IMG/VR virus record: IMGVR_UViG_2603880148_000004
Length of the DNA: 37,740 nucleotides
DNA from: a virus
Taxonomy: Duplodnaviria > Heunggongvirae > Uroviricota > Caudoviricetes
Direction: 5' to 3' (one strand)
The notes beneath the pieces are model-generated. The model was given only the letters and a program-made list of their open reading frames with translations, had not been told where the DNA came from and did no database searches. Both the position numbers and the translations under genes were made by a program. Of the stretch, positions 18,807-37,740 are shown one piece after another. Positions within the stretch are counted from its first letter, which is position 1, and the number at the start of each line of letters is the position of its first letter.

Positions 18807-18814
18807 GAGGGCAT

Positions 18815-18991: not shown

Positions 18992-18994
18992 CAC

Positions 18995-19773: not shown

Positions 19774-20154
19774 ATGGCAAAGGCATGGGATATAGAACCG
19801 TCAATATTTGCCGGGATGATTGAGGAAGATGTGGGGCTGAAAATTCGCTACATCGCTATGCAGATTCTTACTGCTATTGATATTGCTGCTCCGGTTGATA
19901 CCGGACGTTTCAGAAATAACAACCTGGTGTCGTTACAGCATCCCGATTTTGGTATATCTGATAACGTGGATCCGAACGGTACGATTGCGGTTCAGCGTGG
20001 GATCGGGGTTATTTCGAAAGCTGCAAATTACGGAGTTATTTATATCCAGAATAACCTTCCTTATGCAGAGGCTCTTGAAAACGGTCATTCACAACAAGCG
20101 CCAACTGGCGTGTATGCCAACGCTTTTCATGGTGTTTTACAGGCTTACAAATGA
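19774..20154 (+). CDS. Tail completion / neck protein, 126 aa
   Basis: Gene order; RBS aggagag. Confidence 0.5.
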   Translation: MAKAWDIEPSIFAGMIEEDVGLKIRYIAMQILTAIDIAAPVDTGRFRNNNLVSLQHPDFGISDNVDPNGTIAVQRGIGVISKAANYGVIYIQNNLPYAEALENGHSQQAPTGVYANAFHGVLQAYK

Positions 20155-20543
20155 CGTTTACTGAAATCAGAAATACGGTTATTTCCAGAATGACGGCACA
20201 GACGATTATTGATGGAAAAGACGTATTGTATCCGAACGCGCCAACGTTCGATCCTTCCGGTAAGTTAATCTGGGCGCGGTTAAGTAATATTCCCGGGCAG
20301 GCTGGAGTTAATGAAATTGGCGCGGGGCCGGTTGTTTATCGCACGGGGATAATCATTATTCAGTTATTTGTCCCCGCAGGTTCTGGTTCAAAACTCATTA
20401 CTGAGACAGCCGATAAATTGCGGGAACTGTTTGAGTTTCAGGATGACGATCGTCTCAGTTACCAGGCTGTTTCCTCAATAGCCGTCGGCGAAAAGAATGG
20501 CTGGTTCCAGCTTAATCTTCAAATTCCATATCACGCGCTCTAG
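20151..20543 (+). CDS. Tail terminator protein, 130 aa
   Basis: Gene order immediately before the major tail gene; overlapping start. Confidence 0.5.
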   Translation: MTFTEIRNTVISRMTAQTIIDGKDVLYPNAPTFDPSGKLIWARLSNIPGQAGVNEIGAGPVVYRTGIIIIQLFVPAGSGSKLITETADKLRELFEFQDDDRLSYQAVSSIAVGEKNGWFQLNLQIPYHAL

Positions 20544-20569
20544 CGCAATTAATGACATAGGAGGCTCCT

Positions 20570-21532: not shown

Positions 21533-21580
21533 TTTTCCGTTATTCCCCCTGTGGTACTGCACTACAGGGGGACGCATTGA

Positions 21581-22042
21581 ATGAGGTTATGGATGTTTAT
21601 TCTTAATCAGAAAATTATCATCGGTGGAGAACGCTGGTTTACGCCAATGAAGGACTTAAAACCTGTAGACGGGTTAAAACTGTTGGTGGCAAGCAGCGAT
21701 AACGATCAGTATCGCTCCCGTAATGCATTAATCCGTCGTCACATTGAGAAAATGGATGCCAGTTTGCACGTCGGAACGAAGGAGTTTGATATTTCAAAGG
21801 TTTCCGAGGTAGATTCTGTTGATGATTTACTCATTGATAATGCTGCTCGTTATCTGCTGAAAGACTGGAAAGGGGTTGGTGAACTGGTTAATGGTGCTGA
21901 GGTTGCACTGGAATATACGCCAGAACGAGGGATCGCGCTGCTTAAGCAGAATCCAGAGTTGTACTGGCAGATCCTTGCAGAAGCAGCCAGCATCGCCCAG
22001 GGTAAAGAGCAGCAGAAGCAGGATACGATAAAAAAGCCATAG
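21581..22042 (+). CDS. Tail assembly chaperone (lambda G-like), up to 153 aa; start uncertain (21581 or 21647)
   Basis: Position between major tail and tape measure; acidic; ends 2 codons after a slippery heptamer. Confidence 0.6.
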   Translation: MRLWMFILNQKIIIGGERWFTPMKDLKPVDGLKLLVASSDNDQYRSRNALIRRHIEKMDASLHVGTKEFDISKVSEVDSVDDLLIDNAARYLLKDWKGVGELVNGAEVALEYTPERGIALLKQNPELYWQILAEAASIAQGKEQQKQDTIKKP

Positions 22043-22350
22043 CCGCCCAGCGGTGGTTATCGGAGTTCGGGGGAGAAAGGGGGGAAAAGGCAAGATGGAA
22101 GCGAGAAAAACTCAGGTTGCCACCGATACCGGAACCAGAAATAGCCCCGGTGCTTAAGGAATTGTTGTACGCCTATTCGGTAATATCCCGTGCCCGACGT
22201 TATGCTGGAATGACCGGGGTGCCTTTGCCTTTATCTCTGACAGAGATAAATGAATATTTAGCCACTCATCCGGTATTGATTGAGCGCGATGAGTTTGAAG
22301 CAGTGATCTTTGCACTGGATGACCAGTATTTTCAGGAGCAGTGTGTGTAG
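21581..22350 (+). CDS. Tail assembly chaperone GT-like fusion produced by a programmed -1 frameshift at A-AAA-AAG (22030-22036)
   Basis: The -1 frame is open from 22006 to 22350 and overlaps the end of the G-like ORF; classical X-XXY-YYZ heptamer lies 2 codons before the G stop. Confidence 0.5.
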
Positions 22351-22470
22351 TTGTTAATTACGTACACTCTGTTACAGAGATGTGATGGTGTCTTTAATTA
22401 AATCGATGATGCTCCTGGAGAAAAGCATTGCGTGGCCTCGTAATCGCTATATCTACTATTATGTCGCCTG

Positions 22471-22496
22471 AAACCCACTTCGGTGGGCTTTTTGTT
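22471..22496 (+). terminator. Intrinsic terminator-like hairpin between the chaperone genes and tape measure
   Basis: cccac-ttcg-gtggg hairpin followed by ctttttg. Confidence 0.4.
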
Positions 22497-22513
22497 GTCT
22501 GGAGTTTTAATAA

Positions 22514-25500
22514 ATGGCAGAGCAAACCTCGCGTCTCGCAATAATTATTGATAGCACTGGAGCAAAAAATAATGCTGACAATCTGACCTCCTCATTAGTC
22601 AAAATGACGCAGGCCGGGGAAACTGCTGCAAATAGCGCAGGGAAAGTGACTAAGGCAACAGAAGATGAGAAGAACGCGCTCGCAAAATTAAAAGCAGCTA
22701 TTGATCCAGTTGGTGCCGCAATTGATACTGTCGGTCGACGCTATTCTGAATTAAAGAAATTTTTCGATAAAGGGCTTATTGATAAAGAAGAATATGAATT
22801 TCTTGTCCGTAAACTTAATGAAACCACAGAGGAATTGAGCGGGGTTGCGCAAGCGCAGAGAGAAGTCGAGAAGGCCGGAAAACTTGCTGCCGCCCAGCAG
22901 GAAGCGCAGGCTCAGGCCTTTCAAAGAATGCTGGACAAGATCGACCCTCTGGCTGCGGCGCTAAGAAATCTTGAACAACAGCATGATGAACTTAATGCTG
23001 CGTTTGCATCCGGGAAAATAAATGGTTCTCAGTTTGAGAATTATAGCCGAAAAATACAGGAAACACGGCGAGAGCTTACCGGAGAGGCTCAGGCAGAGCG
23101 AGAAGCAGCAAAAGCGCATGATGAACAGGTTGTTGCTTTGCAACGTCTGATTGCTCAACTTGATCCTGTCGGAACTGCTTTTAATCGTCTGGTAGAACAA
23201 CAGAAACAGCTCAATGAAGCAAAAGCCAAGGGGATGCTTTCTCCTGAAATGTATGAGGAGCTTTCTGGAAAACTTCGTGCTATGCGGAGTGAGCTTGAGG
23301 TTACTCAATCACAATTAAGCAAAACCGGAATGTCGGCAAAACAAACGGCTTTTGCTATGCGCATGTTGCCTGCACAAATGACGGATATTGTTGTTGGGTT
23401 GTCCACTGGTCAGTCGCCATTTATGGTGTTAATGCAGCAGGGCGGCCAGCTAAAAGATATGTTCGGTGGGATTGGCCCGGCGATCAAAGGTGTAGGTTCT
23501 TATGTGCTGGGATTAATTAATCCTTTTACCCTGGCCGCAGCAGCCGTTGGGGTCTTAGGACTGGCTTACTATAAAGGCTCTCAGGAGCAGGACGAATTTA
23601 ATAAATCTCTTATTCTTACCGGAAATTAGTTGGGGACAACCAGCGGGCAATTGGGCGATATAGCTCAACGTGCCGGGAATGCGGCTGATTCGACAACTGG
23701 TGCTGCGGCGGCAGTATTAAATCAGCTTGTGCGTTCGGGAAAGGTAGCGAGCAGTTCGCTGGAGCAAGTGACGACAGCGATAGTAAAAACGAGCGAAGTA
23801 ACAGGAATATCAACCGAACAACTGGTTAATGACTTCAATGAAATTGCAAAGGATCCTGTCAGTGCCATATCAAAACTTAATGATCAGTACCATTTTCTGA
23901 CACTTGCGACTTATAACCAGATTAAGGCGCTACAGGATGAAGGGAACCAGCAGGAGGCCGCCCGCATTGCGACAGAAGAATACTCATCCTCAATGATCCA
24001 GCGCACCAACCAGATTAAAGAAAATCTTGGTTATCTTGAGACTGCATGGAAAGCTGTCGCAGACTCCGCAAAATGGGCATGGGATTCCATGCTGGATATT
24101 GGCCGTGAGACCTCCCTTGATCAAAAAATCTCAGATGTTCTCCGTCAAATTGATGAAATAGAAAAAAATACCCGACCCGGAGTTTTCGGGTTAGGTGGCA
24201 TTGGAGATGGCGGAGCTCAAAATAAAAGGCTGGCACGATTAAAGCAGCAATTGGGCGTACTTCAAGCAGAAAAAATTGCTCAGGACGTACTAAATTCATC
24301 AATAAACGATTACAACAAGCGACAACAGGAAGGAATTGAACTCAGACAGAGAGCAGATGCCTTTTCAAAACAATATCAGACCCGGGAGCAGCAGAGAGCT
24401 AGTGAACTTGCAAAACTGGAAAAGCTAAAGAATCAGTATTCAAAGGAAGAATATAATAATCTTATCGCTCAAATAAATGAGCGTTATAAAGATCCAAAGC
24501 AACCAAAGGCGAAAGGTTATTCTGATGATGCAGCCCAACGAATGATTGATCATCTGAATCAACAGAATGCGTTACTAAGTTCACAAGCTGAGTTGACCGT
24601 TAAATTAAGTTCCTCTGAACAGGAACTGGTTAAGTGGCGTCAGCGGATTGCCGACCTAGAGTCACGACCATCATCGAAATTAACCCAGGATCAGAAATCG
24701 CTTCTCTTACACCGGGAAGAAATAACCGCGTTGATGGAGAAAAATGTTACGATTGAAAAGAATAACAGGCTAATCAAGGAATCCGCCGAAATAACAGCAT
24801 GGCGTGATTCATTGCAGGCTTCGATTGATAATCGTCAGCAGGGGTATGATATTCAGATTGCTGGTTATGGGGTTGGCGATAAAAATCAGCAACGCCAGCA
24901 GGAATTACTGCGGATTGAACATGGATATAACAATCAGCGTCTGCAACTTGAACGTGACTATGCAGATAAATCCCGTGGAATGTCAGATCATGTTTTTCAA
25001 GAGAAAATGCAGGCTCTGAATGATGCTCTGGAACGGGAAAAAGAAATTGTCAGACAGAAAAACGAGCAGCTCGATATTCAGGCAGGAGACTGGGTTAGTG
25101 ATGCCTCCCAGGGATTCAATAACTGGCTGGATGACACTAAGGATATCAGTGAGCAGATAAAATCAACCACGACTCAGATGTTTGATGGGATGACCGATGC
25201 GCTGGGTGATTTTGTCACGACAGGCAAGGCAAATTTTCGTTCTTTCGCTACTTCCGTGATTTCGGATCTTAGTCGAATAGCATTAAAGGCTTCAATTACT
25301 GGGATTTTCGACAGCATTAGTAACAGTTCTTCTGGGGGGATTTTAGGAACTATCGGGAGTGCTATTAGTAAATTTATTCCGAATGCAAAGGGCGGTGTTT
25401 ATGAGTCTCCGTCATTGAGCACGTATTCGAACGGTATTTATGATTCCCCGCAATTTTTTGCTTTTGCAAAAGGGGCTGGTGTTTTTGGTGAGGCTGGACC

Positions 25501-25747
25501 GGAAGCCATTATGCCATTAACACGAACTTCCGATGGTTCTCTTGGTGTCAGAGCTATTAATAGTAAAAGTGGTAATGGAGGCGGAGATATTACCTATGCC
25601 CCTGTATACCAAATCACTATTCAAAATGACGGCCAGAATGGAGAGATTGGCCCTCAGGCAATAAAAGCACTTATGGGGATGGTTGATCAGCGGGTGCAGG
25701 GCAATCTGTTAAATATGCGACGTGATGGGGGAATGTTAAGTGGCTAA
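22514..25747 (+). pseudogene. Tail tape measure protein gene interrupted by an in-frame TAG at 23627-23629 (371-aa and 705-aa segments in one frame)
   Basis: Both ORFs share a reading frame and are separated only by TAG; the second begins at TTG straight after the stop; coiled-coil-rich N-terminal part and Gly-rich C-terminal part; combined length about 1077 aa. Confidence 0.75.
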
Positions 25748-26078
25748 TACGGAAGAATTTCACTGGTTACCAGAGGATGGAATGAAAACAGAAAATAAAC
25801 CATCGATAAAAACTGTAAGATTTGGCGATGGTTATGAGCAACGAAGTCCAAATGGACTTAATCATTCTCTGCGCGTTTTCACCTGTGATTTCAAAGTTGA
25901 GGCGAATGAACGTGATTCATTTGAAAAATTTTTAGCCCGGCATGAAGGCTATAAATCTTTTTTTTGGCGCCCGCCGGGTATTAACAGAAAAATCAGAGTG
26001 GTGTGTCGAACGTGGTCAGCGACAGAACATATCACCTATACCGATTTTTCGTGTCAGTTTGACGAAGTGGTGATCTGA
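25740..26078 (+). CDS. M: Minor tail protein M (lambda M-like), 112 aa from GTG
   Basis: ...TVRFGDGYEQRSPNGLN... and ...WSATEHITYTDFSCQFDEVV resemble lambda M motifs; position after tape measure. Confidence 0.85.
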   Translation: MANTEEFHWLPEDGMKTENKPSIKTVRFGDGYEQRSPNGLNHSLRVFTCDFKVEANERDSFEKFLARHEGYKSFFWRPPGINRKIRVVCRTWSATEHITYTDFSCQFDEVVI

Positions 26079-26776
26079 TGCAGGACATACAACAGGAAAC
26101 GCTGAATGAATGCATTCGTGCGGAGCAGTCGGCCAGCGTGGTGCTCTGGGAAATCGACCTGACCGAGGTAGGCGGGGATCGCTACTTTTTCTGTAATGAG
26201 CAGAACGAAAAAGGTGAGTCTGTCACCTGGCAGAGTCGGCAGTATCAGGCCTATCCCATTCAGGGGAGTGGATTTGAGATGAACGGCAAGGGCAGTGCTG
26301 CCCGTCCGACACTGACGGTCTCTAACCTGCACGGCATGATCACCGGGATGGCGGAAGATCTGCAGAGTCTGGTCGGCGGGACGGTGGTCCGGCGTAAGGT
26401 TTACGCCCGCTTTCTGGATGCGGTGAACTTCGTCAACGGAAACAGCGAAGCCGATCCGGAGCAGGAGGTGATCAGCCGCTGGCGCATCGAGCAGTGCAGC
26501 GAACTGAGCGCGGTCAGTGCCTCTTTTGTACTGTCCACGCCGACTGAAACGGATGGCGCTGTTTTTCCGGGACGTATCATGCTGGCCAACACCTGCACCT
26601 GGACCTATCGCGGCGATGAGTGCGGTTATAGCGGTCCGGCGGTCGCGGATGAATATGACCAGCCGACGTCCGATATCACGAAGGATAAATGCAGCAAATG
26701 CCTGAGTGGCTGTAAGTTTCGCAATAATGTCGGCAACTTTGGCAGCTTCCTTTCCATTAACAAACTTTCGCAGTAA
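26078..26776 (+). CDS. L: Minor tail protein L (lambda L-like), 232 aa
   Basis: MQDIQQETLNECIRAEQSASVVLWEIDLTEVGG... near-identical to lambda L as recalled; C-terminal Cys cluster. Confidence 0.92.
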   Translation: MQDIQQETLNECIRAEQSASVVLWEIDLTEVGGDRYFFCNEQNEKGESVTWQSRQYQAYPIQGSGFEMNGKGSAARPTLTVSNLHGMITGMAEDLQSLVGGTVVRRKVYARFLDAVNFVNGNSEADPEQEVISRWRIEQCSELSAVSASFVLSTPTETDGAVFPGRIMLANTCTWTYRGDECGYSGPAVADEYDQPTSDITKDKCSKCLSGCKFRNNVGNFGSFLSINKLSQ

Positions 26777-26781
26777 ATCCC

Positions 26782-27525
26782 ATGACAGAGACAGAATCAG
26801 CGATTCTGGCGCACGCCCGCCGATGTGCGCCAGCGGAGTCGTGCGGCTTCGTGGTGAAAACGCCGGAGGGAGAAAGATATTTTCCCTGCGTGAATATCTC
26901 CGGTGAGCCGGAGGAGTATTTCCGGATGTCGCCGGAGGACTGGCTGCGGGCAGAGATGCAGGGTGAGATTGTGGCACTGGTCCACAGTCACCCCGGTGGT
27001 CTGCCCTGGCTGAGTGAGGCCGACCGGCGGCTGCAGGTGCAGAGTGATTTGCCGTGGTGGCTGGTCTGCCGGGGGGCGATTCATAAATTCCGCTGTGTGC
27101 CGCATCTCACCGGGCGGCGCTTTGAGCACGGGGTGACGGACTGTTACACGCTGTTCCGGGATGCTTACCATCTGGCGGGAATTGAGATGCCGGATTTTCA
27201 TCGCGGGGATGACTGGTGGCGTCACGGTCAGAATCTCTATCTGGATAATCTGGAGGCCACAGGGCTGTATCAGGTGCCGTTGTCAGCGGCGCAGCCGGGC
27301 GATGTGCTGCTGTGCTGTTTTGGTTCATCGGTGCCGAATCATGCCGCCATTTACTGCGGCGACGGCGAGCTGTTGCACCATATTCCTGAACAACTGAGCA
27401 AACGAGAGAGGTATACAGACAAATGGCAGCGACGCACACACTCCCTCTGGCGTCACCGGGCATGGCACGCATCTGCCTTTACGGGGATTTACAACGATTT
27501 GGCCGCCGCATCGACCTTCGTGTGA
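26782..27525 (+). CDS. K: Tail tip assembly protein K (lambda K-like; MPN/JAMM and NlpC/P60-like motifs), 247 aa as the longest ORF
   Basis: MTETESAILAHARRCAPAESCGFVV...HSHPGG... lambda K-like; the 3' end overlaps gene I by 103 nt. Confidence 0.88.
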   Translation: MTETESAILAHARRCAPAESCGFVVKTPEGERYFPCVNISGEPEEYFRMSPEDWLRAEMQGEIVALVHSHPGGLPWLSEADRRLQVQSDLPWWLVCRGAIHKFRCVPHLTGRRFEHGVTDCYTLFRDAYHLAGIEMPDFHRGDDWWRHGQNLYLDNLEATGLYQVPLSAAQPGDVLLCCFGSSVPNHAAIYCGDGELLHHIPEQLSKRERYTDKWQRRTHSLWRHRAWHASAFTGIYNDLAAASTFV

Positions 27526-28094
27526 AAACGGGGGCCGAAGCCATCCGGGCGCTGGCCACACAGCTCCCGGCGTTTCGTCAGAAACTGAGCGACGGCTGGT
27601 ATCAGGTACGGATTGCCGGGCGGGACGTCAGCACGTCCGGATTGACGGCGCAGTTACATGAGGTTCTGCCTGACGGCGCTGTGATTCATATTGTTCCCAG
27701 AGTCGCCGGGGCCAAGTCAGGGGGCGTATTCCAGATTGTTCTGGGGGCTGCCGCCATTGCCGGATCATTCTTTACTGCCGGAGCCACCCTTGCAGCATGG
27801 GGGGCAGCCATTGGGGCAGGTGGTATGACCGGCATCCTGTTTTCTCTCGGTGCCAGTATGGTGCTCGGTGGTGTGGCCCAGATGCTGGCACCGAAAGCCA
27901 GTACCGCAACAACGACCAGCACGGATAACGGTAAGCAGAACACGTATTTCTCGTCACTGGATAACATGGTTGCCCAGGGCAATGTTCTGCCTGTTCTGTA
28001 CGGTGAAATGCGCGTGGGGTCACGCGTGGTTTCTCAGGAGATCAGCACGGCAGACGAAGGGGACGGTGGTCAGGTTGTGGTGATTGGTCGCTGA
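27423..28094 (+). CDS. I: Tail tip assembly protein I (lambda I-like), 223 aa
   Basis: MAATHTLPLASPGMARICLYGDLQRFGRRIDLRVKTG... matches lambda I from memory. Confidence 0.9.
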   Translation: MAATHTLPLASPGMARICLYGDLQRFGRRIDLRVKTGAEAIRALATQLPAFRQKLSDGWYQVRIAGRDVSTSGLTAQLHEVLPDGAVIHIVPRVAGAKSGGVFQIVLGAAAIAGSFFTAGATLAAWGAAIGAGGMTGILFSLGASMVLGGVAQMLAPKASTATTTSTDNGKQNTYFSSLDNMVAQGNVLPVLYGEMRVGSRVVSQEISTADEGDGGQVVVIGR

Positions 28095-28154
28095 TGCAAA
28101 ATGTTTTATGTGAAACCGCCTGCGGGCGGTTTTGTCATTTATGGAGCGTGAGGA

Positions 28155-29894
28155 ATGGGTAAAGGAAGCAGTAAGGGGCATACCCCGCGCGAAGCGAAGG
28201 ACAACCTGAAGTCCACGCAGCTGCTGAGTGTGATCGATGCCATCAGCGAAGGGCCGGTTGAAGGTCCGGTGGATGGATTAAAAAGCGTGCTGCTGAACAG
28301 TACGCCGGTGCTGGACAGTGAGGGGAATACCAACATCTCCGGTGTCACGGTGGTGTTCCGGGCAGGTGAGCAGGAGCAGACACCGCCGGAGGGATTTGAA
28401 TCCTCCGGTTCCGAGACGGTGCTGGGTACGGAAGTGAAATACGACACGCCGATCACCCGGACCATCACGTCTGCAAACATCGACCGTCTGCGCTTTACCT
28501 TCGGTGTGCAGGCACTGGTGGAAACCACCTCAAAGGGTGACCGGAATCCGTCGGAAGTCCGCCTGCTGGTTCAGATACAACGTAACGGTGGCTGGGTGAC
28601 AGAAAAAGACATCACCATTAAGGGCAAAACCACGTCGCAGTATCTGGCCTCGGTGGTGGTGGATAACCTGCCGCCGCGACCGTTCAATATCCGGATGCGC
28701 AGGATGACACCGGACAGCACCACAGACCAGCTGCAGAACAAAACGCTCTGGTCGTCATACACCGAAATCATCGATGTGAAACAGTGCTACCCGAACACGG
28801 CACTGGTCGGCGTACAGGTGGATTCGGAGCAGTTCGGCAGCCAGCAGGTGAGCCGTAATTATCATCTGCGCGGGCGTATTCTGCAGGTGCCGTCGAACTA
28901 TAACCCGCAGACGCGGCAATACAGCGGTATCTGGGACGGAACGTTTAAGCCAGCATACAGCAATAACATGGCCTGGTGTCTGTGGGATATGCTGACCCAT
29001 CCACGCTACGGCATGGGGAAACGTCTTGGTGTGGCGGATGTGGATAAATGGGCGCTGTATGTCATCGGCCAGTACTGCGACCAGTCAGTGCCGGACGGTT
29101 TTGGCGGTACGGAGCCGCGCATCACCTGTAATGCGTACCTGACCACACAGCGCAAGGCGTGGGATGTGCTCAGTGATTTCTGCTCGGCGATGCGCTGTAT
29201 GCCGGTATGGAACGGGCAGACGCTGACGTTCGTGCAGGACCGACCGTCGGATAAGGTGTGGACCTATAACCGCAGTAATGTGGTGATGCCGGATGATGGC
29301 GCGCCGTTCCGCTACAGCTTTAGCGCCCTGAAAGACCGCCATAATGCCGTTGAGGTGAACTGGATTGACCCGAACAACGGCTGGGAGACGGCAACAGAGC
29401 TTGTGGAGGATACGCAGGCCATTGCCCGTTACGGTCGTAACGTCACGAAGATGGATGCTTTTGGCTGTACCAGCCGGGGGCAGGCACACCGCGCCGGGCT
29501 GTGGCTGATTAAAACAGAACTGCTGGAAACGCAGACCGTGGACTTCAGCGTGGGCGCAGAAGGGCTTCGCCATGTGCCGGGTGATGTCATTGAAATCTGT
29601 GATGATGACTATGCCGGTATCAGCATCGGCGGGCGCGTGCTGGCGGGAAACAGCCAGACCCGGACGCTGACGCTCGACCGTGAAATCACGCTGCCATCCT
29701 CCGGCACCAGGCTGATAAGCCTGGTTGACGGAAGTGGCAATCCGGTCAGCGTGGAGGTTCAGTCCGTCACCGACGGCGTGAAGGTGAAAGTTAGCCGTGT
29801 TCCTGACGGCGTTGCCGGATACAGCGTGTGGGGGCTGAAGCTGCCGACGCTGCGCCAGCGCCTGTTCCGCTGCGTGAGTATTATAACCAGGTGA
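28155..29894 (+). pseudogene. J: Host specificity / central tail fibre protein J (lambda J-like), truncated after 579 codons by the Mu-like insertion
   Basis: MGKGSSKGHTPREAKDNLKSTQLLSVIDAISEGP... matches the lambda J N-terminus; lambda J is about 1130 aa; homology stops near 29882 and the ORF ends in a short unrelated tail. Confidence 0.88.
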
Positions 29895-29896
29895 AT

Positions 29897-30055
29897 CATT
29901 TGATACCGACAAGGGTTTTAGTGAAAGGAGGTGAAATCACCTGTAAGATACTGAAATAAAACAGGTGATGGCTAGATGTGCGGATAAGGTCTATTTGATA
30001 CCGATTGTGCAATAATTAGTCATTTATTATAAAATCGGCAACTCATTTGATACTG
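29897..30055 (+). repeat. Three direct copies of ATTTGATAC(C/T)G, candidate transposase-binding sites of the Mu-like left end
   Basis: Copies at 29897-29909, 29993-30004 and 30044-30055, between the element terminus and the repressor gene. Confidence 0.45.
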
Positions 30056-30127
30056 TGGTTTTAGTCTTTTAAGGCGTTCCAAACAATGCGAAATACTCGA
30101 TATAGTGCAAAATGCGGGCTAATGCTA

Positions 30128-30673
30128 TTAACCCGCTTTTGGTTCTACCGCGTTAGATTTGCGACTTCTCTCAGTTTCTTCCAAAATCTCTCTGACGCGT
30201 TCGTCAGACATACCTTCAAGCTGTAATGCAGCTATTCTTTTCCTTCCTTCTAAGCGGATTAGATCTTGATTTTCAGGCTCTAACAACCGAGCTAAGTACT
30301 TGGCTCCATTCAGAACCAAATTTTTCGATAGCTGCTCTAAGTCTTTTTCATCAAGTGCGCTGATAATCGTCATAATTATCTTCTTGCTTTCATCTTGATT
30401 TTCCTTGATCTCACACCGATTCACTTGTGATGCATCACTGAATCCACATAGCCACTCAACACTTACTCCTTCGATAGACGCAATCTGAAGGGCGACACTT
30501 AAGGATGGCTCAGTGCCACGAGACAGATAATTGTTTAGTGTTGAAAATGAAAGCCCCCAATCTCTTGCTGCAGCTCTGACGCTGCGGGAGCCAATCAGCC
30601 TTTTCAGACGCTCAGCAATGCTTTCTTTTCTACCACCAGGAAAAGAAAGAGATGTTGTTGTTTGCTTGTTCAT
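30128..30673 (-). CDS. Transcriptional repressor with HTH (XRE-like), in the Mu c position, 181 aa
   Basis: Leftward-transcribed gene between the element end and ner; HTH-like segment GLSFSTLNNYLSRGTEPSLSVALQIASIEGVSVEWL; RBS aggaag. Confidence 0.65.
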   Translation of the reverse strand: MNKQTTTSLSFPGGRKESIAERLKRLIGSRSVRAAARDWGLSFSTLNNYLSRGTEPSLSVALQIASIEGVSVEWLCGFSDASQVNRCEIKENQDESKKIIMTIISALDEKDLEQLSKNLVLNGAKYLARLLEPENQDLIRLEGRKRIAALQLEGMSDERVREILEETERSRKSNAVEPKAG

Positions 30674-30857
30674 TTTCTTTTCTTCCTATCAATTTGAAAT
30701 TATTAACTTTTAGTGTTGTCAGCAACCATTGATCCACAATAGACAAAAGAAAGATGTTTTTTTGCTTTACATGAAGCAGAGGTGGATCAATACTTATATC
30801 AAACTTGATAACTAAGTTTAGTTATCAAATTTCGTAACTTTTTAGGATAGATGAATC
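30674..30857. promoter_or_regulatory. Divergent promoter/operator region between repressor and ner
   Basis: Inverted repeats TTGATCCAC / GTGGATCAA about 75 bp apart and the palindrome TTGATAACTAAgTTTAGTTATCAA; AT-rich. Confidence 0.5.
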
Positions 30858-31088
30858 ATGGCGAGAAATGAAGTTAAGCCTGATTGGCATCCTCAAAGAA
30901 TTTTGGGGGAAGTCAGAGCCAGAGAAGGAAGCATGAGGGCGCTGGCCCGTAAAGCTGGCGTGGGTCAGAACAATCTGTACAACGCGGTATACCGCCATGT
31001 TCCCAAGTATGAGGGGATTATCGCGGAATGCCTGGGGGTGCCGCCCGAGGAGATTTGGCCCAGCCGCTACATTCGTAAGGTCGCGTAA
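30858..31088 (+). CDS. ner: Ner-like DNA-binding protein, 76 aa
   Basis: ...DWHPQRILGEVRAREGSMRALARKAGVG...VPKYEGIIAECLGVPPEEIWPSRY resembles Mu Ner (DWH.., IWPSRY motifs); located before the transposase. Confidence 0.8.
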   Translation: MARNEVKPDWHPQRILGEVRAREGSMRALARKAGVGQNNLYNAVYRHVPKYEGIIAECLGVPPEEIWPSRYIRKVA

Positions 31089-31090
31089 TT

Positions 31091-33178
31091 ATGTTTGCTT
31101 CAGTCAAAGAACTGGTTGGATTACCGGGGATGCCGGGAACGGAGCAAGGCGTTCGCTATTCAATCAGGAAGTATGCAACCAGCGAAACCAGCAGACGCCG
31201 CAAGAAAGGCGCTAAAGGTTTTGAATACAGCATTGACTGTTTACCTGAAGTGACACAGCAGGCATTACGCGAACGTTATGCCCTGCAACTGATGACGCAA
31301 AAAGCCGATGAATCACCGGCTCCGGTGGTGACAAAGGCCAGACGCTCGTCTGCCGTGGTTGATGCGGTGGAGGCATATCGCGGATCACCACAACTGATGG
31401 TCGAACGCCTCAATGCCCTGACTGAAAACCAGCGCCAGGTGGCAGACGCACGCATTGCGATCGTCAGTGAGGTGCTGAAATTCACGCAACAACCCGGTTT
31501 CAGCTGCGCTAAAGCTATCCGGTTCATCGTTGACCGCCTGTCACACTCGCAACTGGATGAGCGCATTGTGGCAATGGTTGAGATAGCGAACGCCAGAAAG
31601 GGAAACAGTCGCGTGTTGAGTGAAATCACGCTGAAACGCTGGATTGCGGCCTTTAATAAGGCACAGAACGCTGCTGAACGCCTGCTTTTGCTGGCACCAG
31701 GTAAACGCCAGGAAATAAAAGCCGAAGATATTAACTGGTTGCCCGAATTTCTGGCGCAGTATCGCCAGTCAAACGGCCGACCAATGACCGAGGCTTACGA
31801 GGATTTTGTTGCCGAATGGCAGCACCGGCACGCTGATGAGCCTTATATGCTCGATATCATGCCGTCTTATGACACCATTCGCCGCGCAATGAAGAAACTG
31901 CCGGAAGTGGTGAAACAAAAAGGACGGGTTACCGGCAGTGAATACCGCCAGCTTGAGGGATTCACGCGCCGCGACTGGTCAAAAATGCCGGTGAATTATG
32001 TCTGGATTGGTGACGGTCACGGCATGAAGCTGAAATGCGCGCACCCGGTTCACGGGCGGCCATTCGCACCGGAAGTGACCTTTGTTATCGACGGTGGCAC
32101 GCGCTTTGTGGTGGGCTGGAGCCTTGACCTGGCTGAAAATGTTTTCGCCGTAGCCGGTGCCATACAGCACGGTATTCGCCATCATGGCAAACCGTTTCTG
32201 TATTACTCGGATAATGGCTCCGGGGAAACCGCCGACGTCCTGGATAAGGAGATTGTGGGGATACTGCCACGACTGGGGATTAATCACCCGACAGGGATTG
32301 CCGGTAATCCGCAGGGACGGGGCATTATCGAACGGCTTAACCGCACATTACCGATGCGCATAGCCCGTAAATACCGCACCTATTTCGGGAAAGGAGCAGA
32401 TCGCGAGACGTTACGTAAAACCAACCGCGATTTACGCTCGGCATTCAGTGCCCTGCAACAGGGCAAACGGCTGAACGCCCGGCAGCAGTCAGCGATGCGT
32501 GATTTACCGTCCTGGTCTGAACTGATTGATGCCATTCGTGACGGTGTTGAGTGGTACAACAACCGGCCGCACGATGAATTACCCATGAAGCCGAACGGTA
32601 AACATTACAGCCCGGCGGAGTTCAGAAAAAAACGCCTGGCGGAAGAGGACACGGAAATTGAATGGCTGTCCGATGTTGAACTGCGGGATATGTTCCGGCC
32701 GATGGTGGAGCGCCCTGTAAGACGCTGTGAAATACGCTGGCTGAATAATATTTACTACGCGCCCGAGCTGCGTGACGAGCATGGCCGTAAGGTACTTATC
32801 AGCTATGACATTCATGATGCCGAACGAATTACCGTGCGCCGCCCGGATGGCAGCGTGATTTGCGAGGCGGTATGGGACGGCAATAAACGCGAAGCCTTCC
32901 CTGTCAGCGCGGAATACTACAAACAGCAGCAGCGCCTTAAAGGCATGCGTAAACGCGCAGAGGAAAAAATCCGTGATGCCGAGGATGAGGTTGTCAACGT
33001 GCGGGAGCACAAGCCGCAGGAGCCCTGGCTGGAAAACATATACCGCCCTGTGGGTAATACGGTGACCGTTCAGCAACCGGTCGCTGACGATGAACCTGAT
33101 GAAGAATACGAGCGTAATTTCCAGCGGGGATTGCAACTGCTCGAAGCGAAATTAAAAGAAAGTGATCCGCTGGCCTGA
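31091..33178 (+). CDS. Mu-type DDE transposase (MuA-like), 695 aa
   Basis: Size and position after ner; N-terminal segment VKELVGLPGMPGTEQGVRYSIRK...KGAKGFEYSIDCLP resembles the MuA N-terminal DNA-binding domain; followed by the MuB-like ATPase. Confidence 0.85.
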   Translation: MFASVKELVGLPGMPGTEQGVRYSIRKYATSETSRRRKKGAKGFEYSIDCLPEVTQQALRERYALQLMTQKADESPAPVVTKARRSSAVVDAVEAYRGSPQLMVERLNALTENQRQVADARIAIVSEVLKFTQQPGFSCAKAIRFIVDRLSHSQLDERIVAMVEIANARKGNSRVLSEITLKRWIAAFNKAQNAAERLLLLAPGKRQEIKAEDINWLPEFLAQYRQSNGRPMTEAYEDFVAEWQHRHADEPYMLDIMPSYDTIRRAMKKLPEVVKQKGRVTGSEYRQLEGFTRRDWSKMPVNYVWIGDGHGMKLKCAHPVHGRPFAPEVTFVIDGGTRFVVGWSLDLAENVFAVAGAIQHGIRHHGKPFLYYSDNGSGETADVLDKEIVGILPRLGINHPTGIAGNPQGRGIIERLNRTLPMRIARKYRTYFGKGADRETLRKTNRDLRSAFSALQQGKRLNARQQSAMRDLPSWSELIDAIRDGVEWYNNRPHDELPMKPNGKHYSPAEFRKKRLAEEDTEIEWLSDVELRDMFRPMVERPVRRCEIRWLNNIYYAPELRDEHGRKVLISYDIHDAERITVRRPDGSVICEAVWDGNKREAFPVSAEYYKQQQRLKGMRKRAEEKIRDAEDEVVNVREHKPQEPWLENIYRPVGNTVTVQQPVADDEPDEEYERNFQRGLQLLEAKLKESDPLA

Positions 33179-33260
33179 AATAAAAAAATAACCCGAGGGG
33201 TGACTCAGGTTATTTGAGGTTTCAGTCTCGGAGAATGCTGTCTCAAGCGAGGTGAATAAT

Positions 33261-34193
33261 ATGACCGATATTAACGATGTAATCAAGACCATTGATGAAC
33301 TTATTGATGGCGGCGTACTGACGCAGTATGCCATCGCCAGAGAGGCGGGAATTTCCGACGGCACATTATCGGCTTTCCGTAAGGGAAAATATAAAGGCGA
33401 TAACGCTGCTGTGGCTGCTTCCCTGCGCTCCTGGTATGAGAACTGGAATAAACAAAGCGCACTGCCGGAACCGCCGCAGTTTGTGGAAACTCAGACAGTC
33501 CAGGAGCTGCGCGCACTGTTTCAGGCGGTTCGCCTGATGGGCTGTATTAACGTTATTGTGGGCGTACCGGGTGTGGGTAAAACGGCCACTGCCCGTAATT
33601 ACTGCCAGGAGCAACCAAACACCTGGATGATCACCCTGTCACCCGCGCACTCCAGCGTCACGGAGTGTCTGCTGGAGCTGGCCGATGCGCTGGGGATTGA
33701 TTACACCCGCGCGAACAAAGGGGCATTATCCCGCGCCATCCGCCGTCGCCTGATGGGAACGCGTGGACTGGTGATTGTGGATGAGGCGGATCATCTTGGT
33801 ATTGACGGTCTGGAGCAACTCCGGGCAATTCAGGACGCCACGGGGATCGGGATGGTGCTTATTGGTAACCCGCGCGGATTGTTTAAAGGTGGACGCCGCG
33901 CCTTTGGTGATTTATCGCGCCTGTTCAGCCGTCTTGCCCGTACAAAACAACTTCGCAAGGCCAAAAAGGCGGATGTGCTGGCCATTGCCATGGCGTGGGG
34001 GATCAGTGGTGAGGCCGAGCTGGCCGTCATGCAGGCTATCGCTGAAAAGCCGGGAGCGTTACGCGTTCTGACACATACGCTTAACCAGGCGTGGCTCACC
34101 GCCAGCGGTGAAGGCGCGGCGCTGACAGAAAAACATATTAATGCGGCCTTTAAAGAGGTTTATACCAACCCTGAATTACTCTCACAGGTGTGA
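33261..34193 (+). CDS. Transposition ATPase (MuB-like AAA+ protein), 310 aa
   Basis: Walker A GVPGVGKT and Walker B VIVDEADHL; N-terminal HTH; RBS gaggtga; immediately after the transposase. Confidence 0.85.
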   Translation: MTDINDVIKTIDELIDGGVLTQYAIAREAGISDGTLSAFRKGKYKGDNAAVAASLRSWYENWNKQSALPEPPQFVETQTVQELRALFQAVRLMGCINVIVGVPGVGKTATARNYCQEQPNTWMITLSPAHSSVTECLLELADALGIDYTRANKGALSRAIRRRLMGTRGLVIVDEADHLGIDGLEQLRAIQDATGIGMVLIGNPRGLFKGGRRAFGDLSRLFSRLARTKQLRKAKKADVLAIAMAWGISGEAELAVMQAIAEKPGALRVLTHTLNQAWLTASGEGAALTEKHINAAFKEVYTNPELLSQV

Positions 34194-34195: not shown

Positions 34196-34417
34196 ATGGC
34201 GGTATTTAATATTCCTGATATTTACGGACGCTTTTACCTGGTTAATTTCGATAACGTGAAGGTGATTTCACTGGCCGAAAATAAAGAATGTGGCGATTTA
34301 CTTTTTGAATTTAATGACCGCACACGAATGGTGATATCTGCCGGACTTGATCGCGAAGGTGCGACAGAAGTTTACAGCGGAATATGCCGTTCTGTTGGTG
34401 CGAAACAAGTCAGCTAA
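34196..34417 (+). CDS. Small early protein in the Mu kil position, 73 aa
   Basis: Position directly after the B-like gene; RBS aggtg; overlaps the B stop. Confidence 0.45.
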   Translation: MAVFNIPDIYGRFYLVNFDNVKVISLAENKECGDLLFEFNDRTRMVISAGLDREGATEVYSGICRSVGAKQVS

Positions 34418-34429
34418 ATGAGGTGTTAT

Positions 34430-34684
34430 ATGAATATGCAATCCTGCGGTAACAAAATGAATTTATTCGACTCCCTGAACAGCGCGCGCCGTCTGACCGA
34501 ACTTGCCGGTGCGGTACTGGAACGCAGTAAGCGCTATCCGCAACGTTTTGCACTGAAAACCACGCCGCCGGTAGGCAACGTGCAGGGAACCGGTGAAATT
34601 GAAATCACCATACAGACCAACGGCCTGCGCCGCCGTGTGAAGGCCACCCGCATCAGCGGCTGCACGGTTTACTGGGAGGTGTGA
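34430..34684 (+). CDS. Hypothetical Mu-like early protein, 84 aa
   Basis: ORF with RBS gaggtg 4 nt upstream of ATG 34430. Confidence 0.4.
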   Translation: MNMQSCGNKMNLFDSLNSARRLTELAGAVLERSKRYPQRFALKTTPPVGNVQGTGEIEITIQTNGLRRRVKATRISGCTVYWEV

Positions 34685-34685
34685 G

Positions 34686-34967
34686 GTGAAAAAAAATCTC
34701 ATTGCATGGGCGTGGTCGAGTGGTCTTATTGAGTTTGGTTACGTCCTGCCGGAAGGTGCATTGCCGATAGTTGCCGGAAAGCCTGCCACGGTACGGCATG
34801 TGATTGAGGTTATGGCGCGTCATGGACGTGATGAACAGGAGCAGTTACTGGTTCCGGGGATACCGGAAGCGGTGACGGAGGAAGAAGCCTTTAATGCCAT
34901 GATTCGGTTCTGCCGTGAGGTTAGACGCCGGGTCAGTTATCCAAACAGAACGAGGACCAGAGGATGA
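34686..34967 (+). CDS. Hypothetical Mu-like early protein, 93 aa
   Basis: GTG start with RBS gggaggtg; tightly packed operon. Confidence 0.45.
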   Translation: MKKNLIAWAWSSGLIEFGYVLPEGALPIVAGKPATVRHVIEVMARHGRDEQEQLLVPGIPEAVTEEEAFNAMIRFCREVRRRVSYPNRTRTRG

Positions 34968-35236
34968 GTAAAGTCGTACGCATTATTTTCGAATACAAGG
35001 AAGATGTTATCTGCAAAAACTCTGATGGCAGCACGCACAGAGGGGTAAGTCTGGATATACGTTCAACCGGAATAAAGAAGAAAGATAATGGACCCGCCAT
35101 GATTTTTGGGGTGGTTATGCTGGCAGAAAGCAGAAACTTCGCAGAGTTTGTGGCAATGAAAGCCAGTGCATTCATGAAAGACAGAGGCATGGCTTCCGGG
35201 GTTATTAACGGTAATGAATTTAATCAACAGGGGTAA
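34964..35236 (+). CDS. Hypothetical Mu-like early protein, 90 aa (paralog of the next gene)
   Basis: RBS gaggaccagagg; N-terminus MSKVVRIIFEYKED similar to the N-terminus of the following ORF. Confidence 0.45.
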   Translation: MSKVVRIIFEYKEDVICKNSDGSTHRGVSLDIRSTGIKKKDNGPAMIFGVVMLAESRNFAEFVAMKASAFMKDRGMASGVINGNEFNQQG

Positions 35237-35240
35237 TTCC

Positions 35241-35534
35241 ATGAGCAAAGTACGCGTTATTTTTGAATTTAATCATGTTTCGCATGACGAAAAGTTGGCA
35301 GGCAATGACTGTGTTGAAGTGCATGAAAAGATTGGAGTGGATGTGAAAACAGAACGTGATACGGATAACAGGCCGACGTCACTCTGTGACGTTTATGCAA
35401 GTATTCTCCAGTATCACAGTCCTGCAATTATTCAGTTTCTCTCAGCGGAATTTCAGGCATCTGCACAGTCTTTTGGAGCGGATGCCATCATTAAACGCCA
35501 CCGCGTGCATAAAGCATCAGGCACACTGCAATAA
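35241..35534 (+). CDS. Hypothetical Mu-like early protein, 97 aa (paralog of the previous gene)
   Basis: RBS acagggg; N-terminus MSKVRVIFEFNHV similar to the preceding ORF. Confidence 0.45.
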   Translation: MSKVRVIFEFNHVSHDEKLAGNDCVEVHEKIGVDVKTERDTDNRPTSLCDVYASILQYHSPAIIQFLSAEFQASAQSFGADAIIKRHRVHKASGTLQ

Positions 35535-35545
35535 GGAAAAACAAA

Positions 35546-36076
35546 ATGGCTAAACGCGTTACAAAATTAAAGGCCGCAGCCGAGGCGGCACCGCAGACCC
35601 GGGAAGAAGTCAGCCGTGATATCCGCACCCTGGGAGATATTCAGCGAGAGGCGCTGCGCCTGGAAACGGCGATGAATGACGAAGTGGCAGAAATCACCGC
35701 CCGTTATACGCCGCAGATTGAAAATCTTAAAAAGCAAATCAAAGTGCTTTTTAAAGGGATTCAGGACTGGTGCAAAACCAACCGTGATGAGCTGACGAAC
35801 GGCGGCAAAACCAAAACAGCCAATCTGACCACCGGAACGGTGTCATGGCGGCTGGGAACGCCATCATGCAGCGTCAGCCGTGATGTGGAAGGTGTGATTG
35901 AAATGCTGCGCCGTATGGGGCTTGAGCGTTTCATCCGCACGAAAGAGGAAGTGAACAAGGAAGCCGTCCTGGCGGAGCCGGATGCTGTGAAAGGCATTGC
36001 CGGTATCAAGGTGAATAAAGGCGCTGAAAGTTTTTATGTCGAGCCTTTTGAACAGGACGCCGGACTGAATAAATAA
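35546..36076 (+). CDS. gam: Gam-like host-nuclease inhibitor / DNA-end-binding protein, 176 aa
   Basis: Size and position as for Mu Gam; RBS aaggaaaa. Confidence 0.7.
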   Translation: MAKRVTKLKAAAEAAPQTREEVSRDIRTLGDIQREALRLETAMNDEVAEITARYTPQIENLKKQIKVLFKGIQDWCKTNRDELTNGGKTKTANLTTGTVSWRLGTPSCSVSRDVEGVIEMLRRMGLERFIRTKEEVNKEAVLAEPDAVKGIAGIKVNKGAESFYVEPFEQDAGLNK

Positions 36077-36221
36077 CACCACATTAATCAATTAAATATC
36101 ACTTCATTTTAATTATGGCGCTCGCGTCAGGGGACTGCTTGCGCCTGAAAACAGAAAATAAGGGTTAAGAAATATGAAATACGTTTATATCGTCATTAAT
36201 AATGTGGTGGGGAAATAAATC

Positions 36222-36755
36222 ATGATTGATGCAAAAGTGCTTGAAGGGGTTAAAAACTGGCTGTGTATTTATGGCCGCCTGACCTGCGGTGTACTGGCTG
36301 AAAAAATGAATATGCCGCCATCCTCCATGGTTTATTTTCTGCGTGATGCGGTTGATGCAGGCGTGCTGACGGAATGTAACGGTTTTTATGATATTCCGCG
36401 CCCCCGCCCGGTGCAGCCGGTTCGTCGCAAATGCAGCCAGGAATCTGCGGCTGATGATGTTCAGTGGTGCGGCTTCAGAAAATCCCTGCCATGGATTGAG
36501 GGGCATGATATTCCGTCGATGGCGTGGGAATTTGCTCAGGGCGTTCTGACCTGTGAAACCGTTTATGTGGTGGCTGAAGTTGATGAGCAGGCCATGAAAG
36601 AAGGCGTGCCCCAGTTTGTGATGGCGTATATCGACATACGCCTGGGCGTCATTATCTGCGGTTTAAGCGGCTGGAATATCACTGAACATGTTCTGCGCTA
36701 CCTGATTGTTGACCGGACAGCAGCGCCTGCCGGGATATCTGCGGAGGTGGCGTAA
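36222..36755 (+). CDS. Hypothetical Mu-like early protein, 177 aa
   Basis: ORF with RBS ggtgggga; position similar to Mu GemA-type genes (position only). Confidence 0.5.
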   Translation: MIDAKVLEGVKNWLCIYGRLTCGVLAEKMNMPPSSMVYFLRDAVDAGVLTECNGFYDIPRPRPVQPVRRKCSQESAADDVQWCGFRKSLPWIEGHDIPSMAWEFAQGVLTCETVYVVAEVDEQAMKEGVPQFVMAYIDIRLGVIICGLSGWNITEHVLRYLIVDRTAAPAGISAEVA

Positions 36756-37270
36756 TGTTCTTTAAAACATCAAACCCTTCCGCGCTGGCTGCGTGGCAAA
36801 AATACCAGCAGGACTGCCAGAAAGTTAAGGATGAGGCAAAACGCCTTGAGGCCGTGCTGAATGTTGCGTGCCGGTCGGTATTTGTATCCGGTATCAGTGG
36901 ATTTTACTTTAAGGGACTGCGTTTTACGGAGGACAAATATCCTTTTCATCGCGACTTATGGCGAAAACCGACTGCGTCGAATGGCTGGAGCTGCACACCG
37001 CGCACATCACGTATCCCTAAAACCCTGCGTGTTGCCTCTGATGAACTGAACAGTCTGTGGCGTGAATATTCGCCCGTCACGTATGCCAGAACCGATGCGC
37101 TGTTGTTCTGGTTGGGTATTGATTTCTCGGCAATCCTGTTTGGCCCTGTGAAGTGGTTCTGCGTTGACGATGTGATTTACCTTCAGTGCGGCGTAAAACC
37201 CGCAAAACAGAAAATGACCGAAATACTGTCTGATGAGTTTTATGCTGCTGAAAAGCGAGTCAGGGGGTGA
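36755..37270 (+). CDS. Hypothetical Mu-like early protein, 171 aa
   Basis: ORF with RBS ggaggtgg; start overlaps preceding stop. Confidence 0.5.
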   Translation: MFFKTSNPSALAAWQKYQQDCQKVKDEAKRLEAVLNVACRSVFVSGISGFYFKGLRFTEDKYPFHRDLWRKPTASNGWSCTPRTSRIPKTLRVASDELNSLWREYSPVTYARTDALLFWLGIDFSAILFGPVKWFCVDDVIYLQCGVKPAKQKMTEILSDEFYAAEKRVRG

Positions 37271-37273: not shown

Positions 37274-37471
37274 ATGATGAAATTACAACCCATGGGACTA
37301 AAAGGTCGCGCCCCCGCTCATGTCCGTCCGTGGACACCTGAAGAAGATGCGCTGCTGATTGCGCTTTATTCATCCACCCCGGTTAAGGATATTGCTGCCA
37401 GAATAAAAAGAACTGTCTGGGCTGTATATAACCGGACTGGTGTATTGCGCAGTTCATACCCGGAGTTACTG
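37274..37471 (+). pseudogene. Mu-like early gene truncated by IS1 insertion (first about 66 codons intact)
   Basis: ORF MMKLQPMGLKGRAPAHVRPWTPEEDALLIALY... runs into the IS1 terminus at 37472; its last about 26 codons are read from IS1 sequence. Confidence 0.4.
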
Positions 37472-37740
37472 GGTAGTGACTCCAACTTACTGATAGTGTT
37501 TTATGTTCAGATAATGCCCGATGACCTTGTCATGCAGCTCCACCGATTTTGAGAACGACAGCGACTTCCGTCCCAGCCTTGCCAGATGTTGTCTCAGATT
37601 CAGATTATGTCGCTCAATGCGCTGAGTGTAACGCTTGCTGATAACGTGCAGCTTTCCCTTCAGGCGTGATTCATACAGCGGCCAGCCATCCGTCATCCAT
37701 ACCACGACCTCAAAGGCCGACAGCAGGCTCAGAAGACGCT
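37472..37740 (-). mobile_element. Partial IS1, inverted relative to the copy at 1-267, cut by the window edge
   Basis: ggtagtgactccaacttactgatagtgttttatgttcag... is the reverse complement of the IS1 end at 240-267; encodes an identical InsB C-terminus on the minus strand. Confidence 0.85.
37487..37740 (-). CDS. insB: IS1 transposase InsB, C-terminal fragment (N-terminus outside the window)
   Basis: Minus-strand translation identical to the InsB fragment at 1-252. Confidence 0.85.

Follow-up and report, generated by a model that had tools for sequence, protein, structure and literature searches.

The semi-essential early block of a Mu-like prophage: naming of its small genes, a domain linked to Gam and a probably ancient tandem pair

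What are the eight small open reading frames (ORFs) that lie closely packed between a MuB-like ATPase gene and an IS1 element, at positions 34196-37270 of the virus record IMGVR_UViG_2603880148_000004 (Caudoviricetes)? The window, i.e., the whole stretch of DNA that was analysed, is 37,740 nucleotides long, and the ORFs are called here o1 to o5, gam, o7 and o8 according to their order (Table 1). A previous sequence-only reading had placed them in a Mu-like accessory region, had put a name on gam only, had proposed a tandem duplication for o4 and o5 and had expected host-takeover or anti-defence functions. The explanation that probably accounts best for the whole of the results is that: (i) the eight ORFs constitute the semi-essential early (SEE) block of a Mu-like transposable prophage; (ii) o2, gam, o7 and o8 can be named by homology with Kil, Gam, gp11 and gp12; (iii) o3 is linked to Gam; (iv) o4 and o5 form an old pair, for which a role can be proposed from their mode of evolution.

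The SEE block is of an ordinary and recognisable kind. The eight tightly packed small ORFs are all found on the + strand between the MuB-like ATPase gene and IS1, where they had been placed before, and the assignment to the Mu-like semi-essential region is upheld: the gene order is c, ner, A, B and then the block, which lies directly downstream of A and B on the same strand and contains gam (PF07352, above its gathering score). Near-identical intact relatives (such as loci L001 and L002) continue with gp16/GemA, Mor, lysis genes including lysozyme, and late genes. In Mu the semi-essential region belongs to a long early transcript and contains 14 ORFs, mostly unassigned (PMC3325207). More generally, the proteins of this region are described as small, poorly conserved and of unknown function (PMC8705779).

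All eight ORFs are genuine genes, and they are kept in other Mu-like prophages, as had been supposed. The 3-kb block occurs in 232 of 5,426 complete Escherichia coli genomes (about 4%), O157:H7 included, with at least 90% identity in every one of the 233 matching records except one. It is also present in 41 IMG/VR contigs and in two Shiga toxin (Stx)-converting phage records whose annotation mentions a Mu-like phage insert. The ratio of nonsynonymous to synonymous substitution rates (dN/dS) was calculated by the Nei-Gojobori method on the 41 IMG/VR loci plus the RefSeq copies. It ranges from 0.09 to 0.35 for the eight genes, thus below 1 throughout. o4 and o5 are the fastest-evolving and least constrained genes of the operon (0.30 and 0.35, respectively, vs. 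0.05-0.19 for B, kil, gam, o3, gp11 and gp12). One could suppose that part of these small ORFs are chance open frames in a decaying prophage, as the interruption by IS1 and the lack of homologs of o1, o4 and o5 beyond a narrow lineage might suggest. This is extremely improbable, since dN/dS is well below 1 for all eight over many independent loci, every ORF has a Shine-Dalgarno-like motif and is tightly coupled to its neighbour, each belongs to a PHROG family and all are annotated in RefSeq.

The spacing between consecutive genes from o1 to o8 goes from a 4-nt overlap up to 12 nt, with the sole exception of the 145 nt between gam and o7, and the Shine-Dalgarno-like motif precedes all eight starts. 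A promoter-like site is found upstream of ner (30766-30794). The scan for terminators and promoters, in which sites were not in excess over chance, gave no terminator-like site on the + strand from the end of B to IS1, and Rfam gave no match. The absence of such a terminator, the tight spacing, the promoter-like site before ner and the Mu precedent point to a co-transcribed block: o1 to o8 would be read within a long early transcript once the repressor is lifted, as in Mu.

The view that gam alone can be named has to be abandoned, since four of the eight genes are named by homology (Kil family, Gam, Mu gp11 and Mu gp12) and a fifth, o3, is tied to Gam through a domain fusion in phage D3112. 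gam is unambiguous: it matches Pfam Phage_Mu_Gam (PF07352) at 5.5e-42, has 57% identity to Mu Gam and encodes the Ku-like DNA-end-binding protein, which protects linear phage DNA against RecBCD. o2 matches phrog_2679 («Kil protein for bacterial septation inhibition») at 6.6e-46. Its similarity to Mu Kil by BLASTP is limited to the C-terminal 39 aa (33% identity, E 1e-4), and Mu Kil matches phrog_2679 too (9e-5). o2 is thus assigned to the Kil family, as a predicted cell-division inhibitor. o7 has 68% identity to Mup11 and matches Pfam Gp11_C over residues 90-167 (5.7e-41). o8 has 55% identity to Mup12, matches phrog_2314 at 1.2e-84 and is called «Mu-Gp12 family protein» in one RefSeq record. 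On these similarities o7 and o8 are identified as the homologs of Mu gp11 and gp12, respectively.

o1 is an acidic protein of 73 aa that matches phrog_3375 (unknown function) at 1.2e-46. In the phage collection it matches only the two Stx-phage records carrying the Mu-like insert, and a homolog is found in Citrobacter braakii (L051, 2526-2768); o1 is a lineage-specific protein. o1, o4 and o5 are predicted to be soluble, without transmembrane segment.

o3 carries an LLVPGxPEA motif within a conserved domain of about 75 aa, here in a free-standing gene. By BLASTP, it aligns with the 266-aa Gam protein of Pseudomonas phage D3112 over residues 176-248 of the latter (43% identity, E 8e-19), and the Gam of the window has 54% identity to residues 1-161 of the same protein. 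Matching annotation and coordinates give the same placement of the o3 domain at the C-terminus of Gam in DMS3 and JBD24. Pfam models only the Gam part of D3112 Gam, and no described function for its C-terminal domain was found in the literature. The label «host nuclease inhibitor» given in PHROGs to phrog_1518 is explained by the fusion of Gam with the o3 domain. From these alignments o3 is taken as the separate-gene form of the C-terminal extension domain of D3112-type Gam.

The o3 domain is widespread. It was detected by tblastn in 76 phage records and stands alone in JBD69 (gp14), BcepMigl (gp54) and KL4 (gp21). Its gene lies two genes after gam in JBD69, upstream of exoVIII/RecT in Burkholderia phage KL4, and two genes before RdgC in Stenotrophomonas phage phiSHP3. 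In a collection with one genome per species, 115 stretches contain an o3 relative, mostly from Alpha-, Beta- and Gammaproteobacteria, and 80 loci were kept. The P, VPG and PE residues are invariant in the family (79 sequences). Among the 149 ORFs that directly flank o3 relatives, DUF3164 (12) and Phage_Mu_Gam (7) come before HU, MuB-like AAA, Mor and GemA, and o3 adjoins Gam directly in three enterobacterial relatives (L052, L055 and L058). o3 has no relative in Pfam or NCBIfam, and neither o3 nor its family matches a PDB sequence below E 0.4. The 79 o3-family host ORFs contain no Gam domain according to Pfam and do not match a three-sequence Gam profile hidden Markov model (HMM), i.e., no Gam fusion was detected among them; their only Pfam match is a marginal one to Phage_zn_bind_2 (E 9.5e-4).

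The fusion in D3112 and the gene neighbourhood lead to nominate o3 as a predicted partner of Gam, with which it would work at DNA ends. That the basis consists of these two kinds of evidence only has to be counted against this proposal.

Two other observations concern the o3 neighbourhood. In Dickeya and Lonsdalea (L098, 2824-3282; L123, 1669-2139), an N-terminal zinc-ribbon of the CxxC...CxxC type is found on the o3-type domain, and Pluralibacter has a similar 58-aa zinc-ribbon protein encoded by a separate gene nearby (L054, 2586-2762). One zinc-ribbon protein of this group gives the marginal Phage_zn_bind_2 match. A protein of about 205-212 aa stands in the place of Gam beside o3 in several Mu-like prophages of enterobacteria (L051, 3572-4210; L053, 3571-4188; L054, 3743-4360; L056, 3271-3888). 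By its size and position it would fit the DUF3164 neighbours counted above, and it may be a functional replacement of Gam.

Are o4 and o5 paralogs? The N-termini on which the proposal was based, MSKVVRIIFEYKED and MSKVRVIFEFNHV, are correctly quoted. The pairwise alignment gives 22% identity with E 6e-4 by BLASTP. The Smith-Waterman score is 50, against 23.9 +/- 4.3 for shuffled sequences, and is reached by 1 of 5,000 shuffles; the similarity is thus beyond chance. However, most of this signal is in the first 11 residues. When the first 11-12 residues are removed, the score falls to 31 vs. 22.3 +/- 4.0 and is reached by 191 of 5,000 shuffles, which is marginal. The hhalign comparison of the two families alone, both of them shallow, covers no more than 33-45 columns at the N-terminus (probability 83-87%, E 5e-6 to 9e-6). 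In reciprocal HMM searches each family is the best non-self match of the other, but with E from 0.06 to 0.5.

The link is made by single-copy intermediates. In Citrobacter braakii (L051) and Edwardsiella anguillarum (L062), a single gene of 97-100 aa lies between o3 and DUF3164 or Gam. Both proteins are found by the o5 HMM (4e-13 and 1.4e-4, respectively), and the o4 HMM has the Edwardsiella protein as its best non-self match (E 0.009). With these two proteins added, the rebuilt o5 HMM recovers o4 from 6,689 six-frame ORFs at E 2.1e-5. The alignment by hhalign of o4 with o5 plus intermediates extends over 75 columns, i.e., nearly the full length (E 2.1e-5, probability 77%). The E. coli variant L042, which has o5 without o4, is another single-copy state. 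The search with intermediates excluded the P-series proteins and the partly deleted locus L045. A first iterative search from o5 to o4 was discarded, its database having held a natural chimera, P0030 (67 aa, E. coli), in which residues 1-49 of o4 are joined to residues 80-97 of o5 by a deletion at a shared «FG». P0030 and L045 were removed because they could bridge the two families artificially.

Structure predictions by AlphaFold2 (AF2) are of low confidence. The best o4 model has a predicted local distance difference test (pLDDT) score of 72.8, with strands at 6-18 and 24-35 and a helix at 44-73. The o5 model (pLDDT 52.5) has its elements in the same order, i.e., a long beta-hairpin and then a helix. 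In Foldseek searches of BFVD (both models) and PDB (o4 model), nothing came out at E <= 1e-3, the best value being E 0.04; OsmC/Ohr and the other top fold matches were rejected as noise, with TM-scores <0.5. No PDB sequence matches o4 or o5 below E 0.4.

At the level of sequence families, o4 belongs to phrog_4107 and o5 to phrog_2230 (1.8e-38). An exhaustive profile search with o4 over 1.84 billion representatives found only E. coli copies or fragments, plus spurious leucine-rich repeat and other repeat proteins. The o4 family is therefore narrow, and o4 itself appears confined to the Mu-like prophages of E. coli. Word-indexed searches with o4, o5 and Mu gp7 returned nearly only E. coli entries, with one Shigella and one Salmonella gp7 entry and no distant relatives, and an initial scan of genome contigs with the o5 alignment gave no match.

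o4 and o5 are, very probably, genuine paralogs of ancient origin. The tandem duplication is thus retained in so far as both belong to one family, as seen via the single-copy intermediates, and not as a recent event, an identity of about 20% being that of an ancient one. As a single copy accompanies o3 and Gam in related prophages, the pair in the E. coli lineage is an old tandem one. According to the models, both proteins would be deeply diverged copies of one family made of an N-terminal beta-hairpin and an amphipathic helix. Several points weigh on the other side: the marginal score without the N-terminus, the hhalign probabilities below 90% obtained with very shallow profiles (effective number of sequences about 1.5-2.5), and the weakness of the AF2 models, since only one of five o4 models is above pLDDT 50 and o5 reaches 52.5. 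In the opposite view, the two genes would be unrelated and the common N-terminus MSKV-R-IFE- would come from chance or from convergent first-codon constraints of translationally coupled genes. The drop of the pairwise score without the first residues, the direct HMM E-values and the short N-terminal stretch aligned from the two families alone are all in line with it. Nevertheless it is unlikely, since (i) o4 is recovered and aligned over 75 columns once the intermediates are included; (ii) the Edwardsiella protein is matched by both HMMs; (iii) the order of predicted secondary structures is identical in o4 and o5; (iv) no comparable similarity is seen between the other pairs of genes in this coupled operon.

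Mu gp7 (E6) is a probable, though unproven, third member of the o4/o5 family. This protein (87 aa) resembles o4 and o5 in its size and its operon region and, in an alignment examined by eye, by an M-[AS]-K-V-hydrophobic strand and a polar loop followed by an amphipathic helix. It aligns by hhalign with the profile of o4, o5 and intermediates (probability 73.6%, E 2.9e-5) and matches phrog_2230, the o5 family, at E 0.009. On the contrary, it is not significant by HMMER (E 0.26-1.1), nor are the family-to-family hhalign comparisons of o4 or o5 with Mu gp7 (E 0.02-0.24).

The related E. coli loci show where the block varies. kil, o3 and gam have about 90% amino acid identity or more where present, and gp11 and gp12 reach the same level in nearly all loci. 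The o5 alleles have 100, 94, 82 and 57-60% identity next to flanking genes above 90%; those of o4 have about 100% or about 80%, and o1 ranges from 75 to 100%. o4 and o5 are found together in nearly all 41 related loci, but the o4 alleles (about 80% or 100%) combine freely with those of o5 (100, 94 and 58%), which argues against a co-evolving obligate pair. Gene content changes too. In variants of the L040 type, a Mu gp8-like gene of 139 aa lies between o1 and kil, o3 is lost and o4 has a 26-aa leader (L040, 3013-3432 and 3646-3996). In L042 (3796-4188) both o3 and o4 are lost, and the leader found before o4 in the variants devoid of o3 stands here before o5. The slot between gam and gp11 contains in many relatives, O157:H7 included, a gene of 180-196 aa (L004, 3479-4021; L036, 4934-5476; L040, 4909-5499). 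At least two divergent kinds are found there, the one of L040 matching DUF5420. This slot behaves in a moron-like manner.

As for the role of these genes, the host-takeover or anti-defence reading of the block as a whole corresponds to what would be expected from the reputation of the region. None of the nine proteins matches a PADLOC model at E <= 0.01. No characterised anti-defence inhibitor was found in Pfam, NCBIfam, PHROGs, PDB or the fold searches, a dedicated anti-defence library not being among the sources searched. Nothing specific was found in the literature on the functions of Mu gp6-gp12 or on anti-defence roles of Mu early genes. Since o4 and o5 evolve faster and their alleles are shuffled, the likeliest role for them is host takeover or counter-defence, put forward here tentatively. 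o4 and o5 would be small oligomeric proteins binding variable host targets, and o1, o4 and o5 together would be small oligomerising early proteins that act on host targets; alternatively, o4 and o5 may modulate the adjacent o3-Gam module. Three points weigh against the explanation as a whole: (i) o1, o4 and o5 have no informative match in Pfam, NCBIfam, PHROG functions, PDB, PADLOC or the fold searches; (ii) the dN/dS values of 0.30-0.35 correspond to relaxed or partly diversifying selection, and not to demonstrated positive selection; (iii) in this genome, given the IS1 interruption, the operon may perhaps never be productively expressed.

Two other views of o4 and o5 have to be considered. 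According to one of them, o3, o4, o5 and Gam form a single module devoted to DNA-end protection, recombination or nuclease control, and not factors with separate host targets. In all the enterobacterial relatives that were examined, a gp7-like gene neighbours o3 and Gam or DUF3164, with varying order (gp7-like, o3, Gam in L052 and L055; o3, gp7-like, Gam or DUF3164 in the window, L051 and L062); in D3112 the o3 domain is part of Gam, and o3 homologs occur near RdgC or RecET in other phages. However, Mu has gp7 and Gam without o3, L042 lacks both o3 and o4, and the rates of evolution of o4 and o5 are far above those of Gam and o3; moreover, synteny in a compact operon is weak evidence for a joint function. 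A single module is thus rather unlikely. Still less credible is an obligate heteromeric pair, e.g., a paralogous heterodimer or a toxin-antidote-like couple, made of o4 (isoelectric point 9.3) and o5 (isoelectric point 6.3). Their opposite net charges, their adjacency (4 nt apart) and their presence together in nearly all of the 41 loci would fit such a pair. Independent assortment of the alleles, the single-copy states L042, L051 and L062 and the natural o4::o5 deletion chimera P0030 do not. A more far-reaching proposal can be stated, but as a whole it is doubtful: o3, whose domain occurs in transposable prophages across the Proteobacteria, would be an undescribed accessory subunit adding an activity to Gam (e.g., direct inhibition or recruitment of a host nuclease or repair factor), and o4 and o5 would be gp7/E6-like, fast-evolving and duplicable counter-defence or takeover factors specific to enterobacterial Mu-like phages.

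Table 1. Features of the Mu-like element in the window, with dN/dS values where calculated (HTH, helix-turn-helix)
Feature	Position	Strand	Length	dN/dS	Remarks
c-like repressor	30128-30673	-			HTH_3 and Phage_CI_repr Pfam matches, weak; divergent from ner-A-B as in Mu
Ner-like HTH protein	30858-31088	+			First gene of the early operon; HTH annotation in RefSeq relatives
Mu-type transposase A	31091-33178	+			RefSeq relatives: «Mu transposase C-terminal domain-containing protein»
MuB-like AAA+ target-DNA activator (B)	33252-34193	+		0.05	Pfam Phage-MuB_C 7.8e-25, AAA_22 4.4e-18
o1	34196-34417	+	73 aa	0.20	
o2 (kil)	34430-34684	+	84 aa	0.09	
o3	34686-34967	+	93 aa	0.13	
o4	34964-35236	+	90 aa	0.30	
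o5	35241-35534	+	97 aa	0.35	
gam	35546-36076	+	176 aa	0.095	
Intergenic gap gam-o7	36077-36221	.	145 bp		Empty variable slot
o7 (gp11)	36222-36755	+	177 aa	0.165	
o8 (gp12)	36755-37270	+	171 aa	0.19	
Ninth ORF, 5' part of Myb/SANT-like (Mu gp9-like) gene	37274-37471	+			phrog_323 2.5e-16; truncated by IS1
IS1 end (InsB C-terminus)	37472-37740	-			Pfam DDE_Tnp_IS1 3.4e-38

Downstream of the block, the identity to relatives stops at position 37471, where IS1 is inserted in the Myb/SANT-like (Mu gp9-type) gene, whose intact relatives have 183 aa. The 37471/37472 junction is absent from all 5,426 complete E. coli genomes; the insertion is therefore peculiar to the source strain, in which the downstream part of the prophage is probably disabled by it.

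Upstream, the window contains lambdoid genes from 11784 to 29894: terminase, portal-like, P22-type coat, tail tube, tape measure, K (JAB/NlpC) and the J tip-attachment ORF. This last ORF ends at 29894 after only 579 aa, which suggests that the Mu-like element transposed into gene J. The annotation «inserted Bacteriophage Mu-like phage» found in the Stx-phage records agrees with such an insertion. Putative left-end transposase-binding sites are seen in the region 29890-30060, where CATTTGATAC(C/T)G occurs three times (about 29897, 29994 and 30046). The lambdoid tape-measure gene (22514-25747) is made of two abutting ORFs, 22514-23629 and 23630-25747, both with TMP_2 parts; a stop codon, a frameshift or a pseudogene could explain the split. 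An ORF for a TrkH-family cation transporter (8264-9739, 5.2e-145) lies upstream of the lambdoid late genes and may mark host chromosome or cargo beside the prophage.

More than half of the eight genes now have a name or a predicted partner. For decades the small ORFs in the semi-essential region of Mu-like phages have been listed without assignment, and the window adds three modest leads: (i) the widespread o3 domain, with its Gam fusion in Pseudomonas phages; (ii) the o4/o5 family, with probably Mu gp7, which undergoes duplication, copy loss and allele exchange in an otherwise nearly constant operon, a pattern expected under variable host targets; (iii) the variable slot between gam and gp11. 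These leads leave the type of the element unchanged and offer rational targets for assays in a prophage of about 4% of complete E. coli genomes.

In comparison with known systems, the block occupies the same position as the semi-essential region of Mu (Mup05-Mup16), i.e., after c, ner, A and B on one strand. Both consist of small packed ORFs with Kil-family, Gam, gp11, gp12 and Myb-like (gp9-type) genes, and Mu has GemA and Mor further downstream as do the intact relatives of the window. However, only gam, gp11 and gp12 are clear orthologs (55-68% identity), kil having diverged strongly. o1 and o3 of the window have no counterpart in Mu, and Mu gp6 and gp8 are absent from the window. The gp9-like gene comes after gp12 in the window and before gam in Mu, and the gp7-like gene is present twice in the window.

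Among the closest known systems are also the Stx-phage inserts (LC727881 and LC727895) and the Mu-like prophage of O157:H7, with the same eight genes in the same order and 93-95% nucleotide identity. As in the window, the Mu-like element of the Stx-phage inserts lies within a lambdoid prophage. These copies differ from the window by an extra gene of about 180 aa between gam and gp11, which the window does not have, and by the absence of IS1 at the site where the window is interrupted. Finally, the long form of Gam (266 aa) in D3112, DMS3 and JBD24 unites in one protein a Gam part and an o3-like domain, i.e., both parts found in the window, whereas the window has Gam and o3 as separate genes with o4 and o5 between them.

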